A program made the position numbers. From a plasmid, in the NCBI RefSeq assembly GCF_054482595.1, contig NZ_JBTHVH010000006.1: a stretch of 46,161 bases of DNA; one strand, 5' to 3'. Every line of letters begins with the position of its first letter. Position 1 is the stretch's first letter. Positions 10,201 to 13,200 of this stretch are shown here, one piece after another.

Positions 10201-13200
10201 TGACATTCATTGTCAACGGCCATCAATTTATAAGCTGCTTTGCACTTCATAAAAGATCACCACCAGGGCTGCTAAAACAGTACCGATAGCCAGCACGTTA
10301 AAAAGTACGTCCTTCATCTTTACGAACGACATACTGATTTGCGTCCTTTCCCTTTTGTCAGCCTTCTCTATCATCCAGCGTTGGTATGAATCACTGTTAC
10401 TTTTTCTGTCCATGTTCCCCCCAATTCATCAATGAGCACCAGGCGGCCACCAGGCTTCTTGCCAACAAAGTAACGGCCTCGCGGCAGACGTTCGCCAGTC
10501 TTCAGCCGTTCGATCCAGTCCTGAAATGCAGGGCGCGGTTTATAGCTGTAGCGGCCAAAATCAGCTAAAGACTGCGTGACCATGACTGTTTGGCAGCCAT
10601 GCTTTCTCATATCACGAAACGTATTTTCCAGTGCAGCCAGTGTATTCATTTGCACGTTCTCTCTGCTTTTCCCATGAAGATATTAACGACACTCAAAACT
10701 AACACCGTTGGCATGATCACGGCAGCATAGCCGACAGCAACGGCCTGATATATGGTCAATGAGTAGTCGGGCTGTTTATACAATACGACTGAAAAAATGC
10801 TCCCCAAACAAGCAAGCAGAGTTAAAAACAAGTAATCGACAAATCTGTTTTTATAGATAACCCATGCAACGATGCAGGGATATGACACCAGGCACAGGAT
10901 AATCGCATTTGTGGTATGCACGTTTCGCTCCTTGTTATTTAAGGGTTGTCAGCCAGATCAAACAGATTGTTCAGGCTGGAACGGAATTGTTTTACCGATG
11001 ATACCAGCTCCTGACTCCGCGCTTTTTCCTGCGCCAGTTCACGCCGTAGCTGCGCCATCTCGTCTCTGTTACGCTGAAGCTCAAGGATAGCCGTCATAAA
11101 GGTTTTGCTGGCTGATGCCTGTCCGGTCGCTTCCTGCGCCTTTTTAATGGCCTGATCTTCGTCGTCATTCGTTCTGATTGTGTAATGCCCCATGATACCC
11201 CTCTTTTGCTGTCATTTTTGCGCTGCCGGCGCGAACCCGGGAAGAAACTTTGCTGGCAAAAAACACTGGCCAACAGATGTGACCGGGAAAATTTGCTGGC
11301 AATTAATTTTCGATGAAAGCCAGCTCGCAATCGCCGCATTCAATATTCAGTCCGGCTTTGCCCCACACGGCAGCGCCACACCCGCGACACTGATATTTAA
11401 CTTTATTTCGTTTTGGCTTGTCCTCAAATGCTGCAACTGACAAATCATTGTCATTGCTCCCGGCCATATCATCTGAATGGCTCCCGTTCTGCGGTGACAC
11501 TGACGGCAGCAGAGCCATAGAAAGCACCGCTTCTATATCAATCCCGGCCTCAGCATTTTGATGCGCCAGAGCAAGCGTTTCGCGCCATTGCTCTATTACG
11601 GCGGTCATATCTTTTTGTTGTTCGACCTGGACAGGGAAGCGATCAAACCAGCTCAAAGCAAATTGCCCCTGGAACAGTTCCAGTGTGACGCGCTGGAAGC
11701 GGCCACCAGGGATCGGATAGTCATTAATCTTCTGGCCGACTTTCGCACCACCAGGTCTCCCGGTGGAGGAGGGCATAAGTCCGATACTTTCCATTTTTGC
11801 CGCCCACTGCGCATTGTGGTACGTCTTACGCGACGGGTTGCCGTAGTGGTACTGCCACATATGGCACTGCTCATGAACCAGCGTTTGCATGACTTCAATA
11901 AGCGGGTACACCGGGAAGTATTCAGGATTGAGGGCGATTTCATCAATCATCCTGCCGCTGCCGTCAGCAGCAACAAAGCGCCTGTAACTGAAATAGCCCA
12001 TTGTGTTCTTGCCGCGCTGGAACGTAATCAGACAGTCAGGGAGTTCGCCGTCAAAAAGGCGCTGGTTATAGAAATCAAACGCCTGTTGTAGCTCGCTGTA
12101 AGCGCGTTCCGTGGCTCTTGTCATGCTGAAGTTCGCTTAGCGGCGTTCCGATATTCCTGTAACTCTGCAACAATAGCAGGGAACACATCAGCGCAACGCT
12201 GTGCCAGCTTAACCGCCTTTGAACAAACGCCCATACCATGTGCTCTTTTGAGCGCCTCCAACAAATCTACCAGTTCCTCGTCAGTGATTTTTTCAGTCAT
12301 CTATTAAGCTTCTCCATTATCTGTATCGTACGATACAGATAATATAAACCACACCTTTGATAGCGGCAATCTTTTTTGCTGGCAATTTCACGCCCAGGGC
12401 GGGCATCGAGCGGGTAATATTGCTGGCAAAAATCAACGGCCAAACCGGCTGCAGGAAACTGGTTTGCTGGCAAGCGTGATTTACTGCTGGGCTTGACACC
12501 TTGCCATTGTATGACGCTTGTTTTAGTGTCAAATGAACAACCAGCGCGAGAAGAATATAGGAAGCAAAAGCAATGGATATCAAACCTAACTCAGTGATCC
12601 ACCTGGAGCCAGGCGAAACATTACCCGGCTATACCAATCTGAAACCCGTACCTGATAAGTATTTCGATGAGTTAAAGGCACTCATAAATAAACTCAATAC
12701 TCAATCCGGTAATATTTACCTCAAGTTAAAACAGATGTACGCCTTTTTGGATCGTTTTAACAAAGAATTTGTGAGCACGTTTACCTCCTGTCAAAAGGGG
12801 TGCTCTTCGTGCTGTAAAATGGATGTTCATTTAACCGCGCTTGAGGCAACACATATTGCACAAGCAAGTAAACTTACTGCCAGAGACAACCCGCTTACGA
12901 CCGGGCATGAGTCAAAATGTCCGTTTTTGTCTGAGAAGGGAACATGCTCAATCTACAATTACCGCCCGCTGTTATGCAGGACATATCATGTACTCACTCC
13001 GCCGGAGATGTGTAATGACCTGGATGCACAAGTCATGCAGTATGGTTCTCAAAGCGCGAACATGGGAAATCACATCTACAAAACAATAGCAGAGTGGATC
13101 TATTTTCAGACGTATCACTGCACTGGTAAGTTAGAAACCAAAGATATCAGAGACTACTTCCCTTATCCCCGCGAAGATATCCAAAGATTTCTTCACCATA

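Follow-up and report, generated by a model that had tools for sequence, protein, structure and literature searches.

The window analyzed here, the whole 46,161-bp stretch of contig NZ_JBTHVH010000006.1, is a complete IncX3 plasmid carrying blaNDM-5. Three of its noncoding loci hold a module of three short boxes (TTGCTGGCA and related forms) whose starts lie 43 to 44 bp apart, and one of them directly precedes a gene for an 84-amino-acid (84-aa) protein. IncX3 plasmids are the main global carriers of blaNDM-5. PLSDB contains 925 records that are at least 99% identical over the 3.5-kb stretch around the boxes, many of them exactly 46,161 bp long, and a PLSDB match, NZ_CP024825.1, provided the annotation (window coordinate = record coordinate + 5255). 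Nearly all of the backbone genes near the boxes lie on the minus strand, with ykgJ and pir on the plus strand; the minus-strand genes also include hns, topB, the type IV secretion genes, and taxC/taxA. Module 1 fills the 109-bp gap between the stop codon of a SprT-like metalloprotease gene and the start of the 84-aa gene. Module 2 adjoins, on the upstream side, the predicted -35 element of the operon formed by a 59-aa gene and the SprT-like gene, within the divergent region that this operon shares with ykgJ. Module 3 is located between the replication region and an operon headed by a DnaJ-domain gene, 386 to 452 nt upstream of that operon's first gene. We consider it likely that the three loci serve the plasmid's own 84-aa protein as operator arrays.

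A preliminary description of this DNA had placed boxes at these loci, and we recovered them within 1 to 2 bases of the positions given there. It had counted an extra box at locus 2 only and two boxes elsewhere; with the boxes at 11206 and 37498, which lie on the gene-proximal side and emerged once a single mismatch to TTGCTGGCA was tolerated, all three loci in fact hold three (Table 1). The box that it called long is always the central one, and the A-tract and GGCCA extension that define it follow the boxes at 11250 (to about 11272), 12420 (to about 12442), and 37541 (to about 37564). The uniform orientation that had been reported holds for these extensions but not for the cores, the central dinucleotide being flipped (CA, not TG) in two boxes of locus 3. 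A weaker regularity surrounds the boxes: CCGG/GGCC tetramers cluster 15 to 17 bp from the box centers, and each box is flanked on both sides by 10 bp of AT-rich DNA. The long box is the best-kept instance of this pattern.

Both the boxes and their phasing are strongly enriched over shuffled backgrounds, as had been anticipated. The window contains six exact matches to TTGCYRGCAA, against a mean of 0.37 (maximum, 2) in 100 dinucleotide shuffles, and 18 matches against 7.67 expected when one mismatch is allowed. Pairs of TTGCTGGCA-like boxes (at most one mismatch) at a distance of 42 to 46 bp number six, against a mean of 0.045 (maximum, 1) in 200 dinucleotide shuffles. Moreover, a motif-free search for 8-mers recurring three times at 42 to 46 bp returned solely these three loci and the replication iterons, 22-bp direct repeats at 38234 to 38360, just upstream of pir, whose sequence is unrelated to that of the boxes and which were caught because 2 × 22 = 44. 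Replication iterons, taken as contiguous direct repeats of about 17 to 22 bp beside an initiator gene, do not describe the modules, whose boxes are 8 to 10 bp long with nonconserved spacers and two of which lie far from pir. The boxes are, with high confidence, functional cis-elements and far from chance.

Table 1. Coordinates of the modules and neighboring features in the window
Feature	Position	Strand	Details and source
Module 1	11206..11302	+	Boxes 11206-11214 TTGCTGTCA, 11250-11259 TTGCTGGCAA (long), 11293-11302 TTGCTGGCAA; spacing 44, 43 bp
Module 2	12376..12473	+	Exact TTGCTGGCAA at 12376, 12420 (long), 12464; spacing 44, 44 bp
Module 3	37498..37593	+	TGACAGCAA at 37498, TTGCCAGCAA at 37541 (long), TTGCTGGCG at 37585; spacing 43-44 bp
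61/92/91/84-aa gene string	10228-11193	-	Annotation
Gene of the 84-aa candidate regulator	10939..11193	-	Annotation, family comparison
Genes encoding 91-aa (membrane-like), 92-aa, and 61-aa proteins, following the 84-aa gene	10228..10921	-	Annotation
SprT-like metalloprotease gene	11303-12124	-	PF10263 SprT-like, E = 1e-14
59-aa gene, in an operon with the SprT-like gene	12121-12300	-	Annotation
Perfect 26-bp palindrome TTATCTGTATCGTACGATACAGATAA	12318..12343	.	Over -10/+1 of the predicted 59-aa/SprT promoter; unique in the window
Predicted sigma-70 promoter of the 59-aa/SprT operon	12341..12369	-	TTGCCG, 17-nt spacer, TATATT; consensus scan
ykgJ	12573-13223	+	Annotation
DnaJ-domain gene, heading an operon of small genes that runs towards the taxA/oriT side	36530..37045	-	Annotation
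pir	38398-39411	+	Annotation

The positions of the modules suggest what they may control. The proximal box of module 1 ends 12 nt before the ATG of the 84-aa gene, beside the ribosome-binding site, and for this reason the protein would be expected to limit its own operon. From their spacing and strand, the downstream 91-, 92-, and 61-aa genes are presumably cotranscribed with the 84-aa gene and hence would also be under module 1. In 8 other lineages of the protein, the proximal box lies 19 to 50 nt before the ATG, and several lineages carry a -10-like ATAAT or TAAAT directly after it. As far as the sequence can tell, this is the layout of an autorepressor. At module 2, 6 to 7 nt separate the proximal box from the predicted -35 hexamer, so that an array abutting this element could control the 59-aa/SprT operon. 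Locus 3 had been thought to lack an intact downstream gene, but the minus-strand DnaJ-domain operon follows it, and the same order is found in IncX5 plasmids and in contig L087. An extended -10-like TGgTATAAT is present at 37105 to 37120 on the minus strand, about 60 nt upstream of the annotated DnaJ-domain start at 37045; this start is the more likely one, because a longer reading frame from 37111 would include the promoter-like sequence. The window therefore has boxes at the candidate regulator's own ribosome-binding/promoter region and copies at other sites, as expected for a cooperative autoregulator, the promoters being predicted ones.

The boxes do not appear to be other familiar signals. 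An intrinsic terminator was called only as one weak hairpin in module 1, with none in the other modules, and the absence of a consistent -10 element led us to reject the boxes as sigma-70 promoter elements. Read directly against the sigma-54 pattern, in which GG and GC elements stand at a fixed -24/-12 spacing (TGGCAC, 5 nt, TTGC), the long boxes have a GG-to-GC distance of 13 to 14 nt instead of 11, and the other strand has the wrong element order.

The 84-aa protein has no curated family match, and PHROGs, in which it falls into PHROG 8031, gives the family no known function. In the alignment of its homologues, residues 1 to 37 are conserved (MGHYTIRT-x5-D-x2-I-x2-AQ-x3-G-x3-ASK-x-FMTAI), while the remainder is heptad-like. 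The N terminus, the most conserved part of the family, follows the pattern strand, helix A, G-x-S/T turn, helix B. It also gives in-register, subthreshold Pfam matches to DUF6290 and TacA1, which we take to be ribbon-helix-helix antitoxin families. This pattern, together with these matches, suggests a ribbon-helix-helix head. The AlphaFold monomer consists of a helix (residues 10 to 22), a turn, and a long helix of about 58 residues (25 to 82), with residues 1 to 9 unstructured and of low confidence; the strand of a ribbon-helix-helix fold requires a dimer. The long helix presumably forms a coiled coil. The model is thus that of a probable ribbon-helix-helix head on a coiled-coil stalk.

An exhaustive profile search returned 52 representatives of the family at E ≤ 0.001, several of which are fragments or long coiled-coil proteins that match the helical part only. 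We compared the regions upstream of 12 family genes, from lineages spanning about 23 to 100% identity to the 84-aa protein, by counting 8-mer repeats (at most one mismatch, either orientation) within 250 bp. The resulting spacing histogram has 29 matches at 43 bp and 41 at 44 bp, against at most 14 and mostly fewer than 10 elsewhere, and 11 of the 12 regions contribute. In IncX5 plasmids, whose DNA identity is about 75% over the part of locus 2 to which the query still aligned, all three modules persist with unchanged spacing, and locus 3 has the same flipped centers (36165/36208/36252 in L008). Module 1 is conserved in IncX5, Serratia fonticola, Kosakonia, and contigs L093/L094. Wherever the DNA was readable, phased boxes adjoin the gene, namely in IncX5, Kosakonia (two tandem modules), S. 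fonticola, Apirhabdus, and Erwinia. A 59-kb Yersinia pseudotuberculosis plasmid, whose family member is 29% identical, has two modules just beyond an ssb that adjoins the gene. Members that are about 29 to 32% identical repeat the order SprT, module, gene (L093/L094 and L097) or have two boxes 43 to 44 bp apart before the gene (L092 and L101).

When 17 modules from diverged plasmids were aligned on the middle box, the information was concentrated in the three boxes (consensus ttTGCyrGCAa, with T/A-rich flanks), and the spacers were essentially unconserved. Judged from this alignment, the pattern looks like the footprint of three sites at a fixed distance and not like a conserved 130-bp sequence. 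This bears on the idea that the modules are functionless, either decaying duplicate copies or chance -35-like hexamers (TTGCCA). Spacer similarity between certain modules, as in CATCGAG and GCTGCAG (module-2-type) or CGGTCGYAGAA beside some boxes, does suggest common ancestry by duplication. However, the boxes and their exact spacing persist where the spacers have diverged, the pattern holds across proteins down to about 23 to 32% identity, and the TGATTGCA boxes of phage-type modules are unlike a -35 hexamer, which makes lack of function barely credible.

The same alignment speaks to the proposal that the modules act as folded single strands, either as a single-stranded DNA promoter or priming site after conjugative entry or as a structured RNA. 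In its favor, the three modules of the window share strand orientation, their SprT-like and DnaJ-domain neighbors, like the ssb found in other plasmids, are of kinds typical for establishment or leading regions, and TTGCUGGCAA is self-complementary if G-U pairs are allowed. We regard this proposal as highly improbable, since the spacers are unconserved with no compensatory pattern evident, the core orientation is mixed within and between modules, and no Rfam match was obtained at the modules. Furthermore, the 121-nt modules folded as single-stranded DNA gave no consistent structure over the six strands (z = 0.37, 0.43, -0.56, -0.28, -1.99, and -0.43).

We also searched a single genome from each bacterial species for triplets of TGCTGGCA boxes at a 43- to 44-bp pitch. 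Among the 78 stretches found, the 8 Enterobacterales matches are all plasmid-like, noncoding, and spaced by 43 to 44 bp; the minority of nonenterobacterial matches that we inspected are tandem repeats with other periods and probably coding. Scans of viral contigs for plasmid-type and phage-type three-box patterns found nothing. Filamentous-phage-like contexts (Rep_trans/RstB, Zot, secretin) surround some family members (L098, 100 to 256; L099, 1480 to 1680; L095, 370 to 480); there, three or four boxes precede the gene at the 43- to 44-bp pitch, and L095 has TGATAGCA at 88 bp.

Within IncX, the distribution is narrower than the general backbone regulon that had been suggested. Both the gene and the phased boxes are absent from IncX4 (whole plasmid), IncX1 pOLA52 (50 of 51.6 kb), and an IncX-like plasmid, although these box-free plasmids share TopB and H-NS and some also have DnaJ-domain, SprT-like, or relaxosome genes. 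The expected conservation in related plasmids therefore holds for IncX5 and extends outside IncX, to the Yersinia plasmid, but fails for IncX1, IncX4, and the IncX-like plasmid. Conversely, the 84-aa gene is the sole gene common to all module-bearing contexts examined for gene content, SprT, ssb, DnaJ, and ParA each being absent somewhere.

The box sequence itself follows the protein. Across lineages, the outer TG...CA and the 43- to 44-bp pitch are constant, while the inner four bases track the protein lineage. Plasmid members, which start with MG(H/N/Q), have TGCYRGCA or TGACAGCA boxes, with inner bases CYRG or ACAG. Two members in filamentous-phage contexts (starting with MAYTVRT and MALTIRP) have three or four TGATTGCA/TGCAATCA boxes with inner ATTG/CAAT. 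The L100 boxes are TGCTATCA, with inner bases CTAT, CCCT, and CTTT. Homologue-linked boxes, this covariation, and the joint absence from IncX plasmids make the 84-aa protein the best of the candidates that had been put forward, and its binding to the boxes is, on these comparisons, a fairly probable prediction. The near-palindromic core likewise fits the dimeric regulator that had been envisaged, and comparative evidence for strict 43- to 44-bp phasing fits cooperative binding.

Several observations count against this interpretation. One good module (32450/32494/32538) is present on the complete 48.5-kb Salmonella plasmid NZ_CP100672.1 (L096), in which no member of the 84-aa family was found even at E = 10, and at four other Enterobacterales loci (L045, L072, L074, and L077) a module stands without a homologue within the 8 kb readable. 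Such orphan modules may be relics, sites served in trans, or a sign of another protein. The ribbon-helix-helix assignment lies below every curated threshold, sequence and fold searches of the PDB returned coiled-coil matches only, i.e., the long helix, and hhalign comparisons with CopG and Mnt were uninformative. In addition, 44 bp corresponds to 4.2 turns of relaxed B-DNA, not exactly 4, and in L093 the long-box extension points the opposite way with respect to the gene. The consensus scan found no convincing sigma-70 promoter at module 1, where transcription from the SprT promoter may instead continue into the 84-aa operon, with the module as a roadblock, and for module 3 the closest promoter-like site is about 390 nt away. 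Finally, a module that abuts the gene could be coinherited simply as its promoter region. Because an adjacent module may travel in this way, the co-occurrence argument loses force for module 1, whereas modules 2 and 3 and the covariation are unaffected; as evidence, the covariation and the additional modules elsewhere outweigh plain adjacency.

The orphan modules would also be accommodated if another protein, either a host Enterobacterales factor or a plasmid product, bound the boxes and the 84-aa gene were merely one of its targets. The restriction of the plasmid-type modules of the genome scan to Enterobacterales and the subthreshold matches behind the 84-aa DNA-binding fold would agree with this. 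Nonetheless, we judge it unlikely. A fixed host factor would not produce inner box bases that covary with the 84-aa lineage, including in phage contexts, and no other gene accompanies the modules throughout; IncX1, IncX4, and the IncX-like plasmid share hosts and most backbone genes, yet are without boxes. As for plasmid products, the 59-aa protein had been named as a possible binder, but in IncX5 its gene is replaced by an unrelated one annotated ArdR (the two proteins gave no alignment) while module 2 is retained. YkgJ was rejected since ykgJ is absent from IncX5, where the boxes are kept. Among regulators with published sites, VirBR has AAAAATTTAGTTAACTTGAC, and ArdK has TTGACA direct repeats.

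A different alternative keeps the 84-aa protein as the binder but makes its role mainly architectural, the modules serving as centromere-like or plasmid-pairing sites with a small ParA ATPase or as a scaffold near the origin. The gene adjoins a small ParA (VirC1/MipZ-type) gene in L093, L097, L101, and L100, and the order SprT-like, 84-aa homologue, small ParA is found in the first three of these (4018 to 6701, 2149 to 4197, and 69 to 1423, respectively). The presumed ancestral IncX3 order would place the gene upstream of the par genes; comparison of gene orders suggests that the IncX3 resistance region was inserted between the 84-aa operon and these genes, which are now split from it. Module 3 is near the iterons, and the ribbon-helix-helix proteins omega of pSM19035 and ParG of TP228, both regulators and centromere binders, offer a dual-role analogy. 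On the other hand, the IncX3 ParA has its own 94-aa partner gene just downstream (the counterpart in the IncX-like L091 is annotated as CopG family), and neither motif scans nor the motif-free repeat search revealed phased boxes upstream of parA in the window. For the same reasons, i.e., no box array upstream of parA and a separately encoded partner, a type Ib partition centromere with a ParG-like binder was rejected. The proximal box lies on the gene's own ribosome-binding/promoter region in most lineages, which is an autoregulator layout, and the phage-context members have no nearby ParA. A mainly architectural role thus seems distinctly unlikely to us.

We therefore most favor a cooperative autoregulator whose control would extend to the 59-aa/SprT operon and to the third site, which adjoins the replication region and lies upstream of the DnaJ-domain operon. 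One N-terminal dimer would read one 8- to 10-bp near-palindromic box, (T)TGC-YR-GCA(A), and the long C-terminal helices would link dimers bound 43 to 44 bp apart. Since this distance is about four helical turns, the dimers would sit roughly on one face of the DNA. Three weak sites could in this way behave as a single cooperative unit spanning about 100 bp, and the DNA may bend at the A-tracts. That the outcome would be repression rather than activation is proposed with less confidence, and "regulon" is used here for a set of putative targets read from the sequence alone.

This would be a familiar kind of system, a plasmid-encoded multioperator regulator; what is unusual is the fixed 44-bp pitch of the sites, and the protein family is uncharacterized. 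The omega repressor of pSM19035 is a ribbon-helix-helix global regulator without a long C-terminal coiled coil, which recognizes 7 to 10 contiguous 7-bp heptads (WATCACW). Like omega, the 84-aa protein would be a small plasmid protein of this fold class with short repeat sites in several promoter regions, including its own, and cooperative dimers on arrays of mixed-orientation repeats would coordinate maintenance functions. In contrast to omega, the boxes are 8 to 10 bp long, separated by about 35 bp of nonconserved sequence at a fixed 43- to 44-bp pitch; there is no detectable sequence similarity, and a role in partition is not indicated in IncX3. Mnt of phage P22 acts as a tetramer on one 17-bp operator, and TraM of the F plasmid occupies clusters of sites, about 12 bp apart, in the vicinity of oriT. 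Both resemble our model in size (about 80 to 130 aa), in an N-terminal ribbon-helix-helix dimer with C-terminal helical oligomerization, and in cooperative neighboring sites, but neither is known to read sites spaced by four helical turns, and the hhalign comparison with Mnt, as noted above, was uninformative.

The nearest functional analogy is with the ArdK/KorA/CUP systems of IncN and IncW plasmids (pKM101 and R388), in which operators of a plasmid repressor precede several establishment genes; in R388, these include ardC, ssb, and orf7. IncN also has a SprT-like gene beside ardK, and IncX5 has the ArdR-annotated gene in its module 2 operon. However, a KorA operator is an inverted repeat at the -10 element. 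ArdK, a helix-turn-helix member of the KorA family with 102 aa, has as its operator direct repeats of TTGACA adjoining the -35 element (PMC9723621). The IncX3 84-aa protein is unrelated to ArdK, and both the motif and the 44-bp architecture differ. No KorA/ArdK-like match was obtained among the 10 small proteins around the three loci, and the plasmid annotation suggested none. The IncX5 ArdR, which had been the lead to an ArdK/ArdR or CUP-like regulon, is unrelated to the 59-aa protein, and with the differing ArdK operator this identity was rejected.

ActX, VirBR, and the H-NS homologues HppX3/Sfx belong to the same plasmid backbone and likewise regulate operons of it, but their targets are type IV secretion genes. 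The VirBR site, AT rich and 20 bp long, lies upstream of actX, and the AT-rich DNA bound by HppX3 is close to repB and to the secretion genes (PMC11214620, PMC11915502). Searching both papers by term yielded no mention of the TTGCTGGCA boxes or the 84-aa gene, and the literature that could be searched contained no description linking either the motif or the gene to a function.

All IncX3 regulators known so far (ActX, VirBR, and HppX3) concern transfer genes. If our proposal is correct, an uncharted autoregulated circuit would extend over the SprT-like protease operon, a small membrane-protein operon, and a site beside the DnaJ-domain operon, with possible consequences for fitness cost, stability, or the establishment of the plasmid in new hosts. 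More broadly, and only tentatively, we suggest that a hitherto unrecognized family of regulators of about 80 aa, with a ribbon-helix-helix-like head and a long coiled-coil tail, occurs in enterobacterial conjugative plasmids and filamentous-phage-like elements and reads 8-bp boxes exactly four turns apart as one unit through a coiled-coil-linked oligomer; a wrapped or bridged complex of about 100 to 130 bp would then act as a switch for operons of establishment and maintenance. For IncX3 NDM plasmids, this would add a fourth regulator to ActX, VirBR, and HppX3 of the backbone, one in charge of the SprT-like and DnaJ-domain operons. The 44-bp pitch, which plasmids and filamentous-phage-like elements have in common even as the box sequence drifts, constitutes a natural series that could be used for studying how a small oligomeric protein measures distance along DNA.

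The palindrome next to module 2 appears, on comparative grounds, to be a second putative operator for a different binder. Versions of it precede the SprT operon in IncX5, L093/L094, and IncX4, and because IncX4 keeps it without the 84-aa gene and the boxes, it was rejected as a site of the 84-aa protein and would have another binder. Its arms resemble LexA half-sites (CTGT/ACAG), but they are 10 bp apart, not 8. The Prokaryotic Genome Annotation Pipeline (PGAP) calls an 88-aa "hypothetical protein" at 12317 to 12583 on the minus strand. This frame, placed wholly over the promoter region, the palindrome, and module 2 and reaching into the beginning of ykgJ, is probably not a real gene.

The noncoding stretch between module 3 and the DnaJ-domain gene (37120 to 37500), in which PGAP calls a 52-aa open reading frame at 37299 to 37457, folds as single-stranded DNA better than shuffled sequences, whichever strand is taken (z = -2.5 and -3.0). 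Possible roles are those of a single-strand promoter or priming site of a leading region, or of an RNA. In the Salmonella plasmid, the module at 32450 to 32546 has well-conserved spacers and lies in a 500-bp noncoding region that also contains a DnaA-box-like TTATCCACA, a combination also seen in L077 and L045. Downstream of the 84-aa operon (9874 to 9961 on the plus strand and 9471 to 9566 on the minus strand), Rfam reports an AgrB antisense RNA match (47.8 bits versus a gathering score of 40), which adjoins the annotated DinQ-like type I toxin gene dqlB; a dqlB-like region also adjoins the orphan module in L072.

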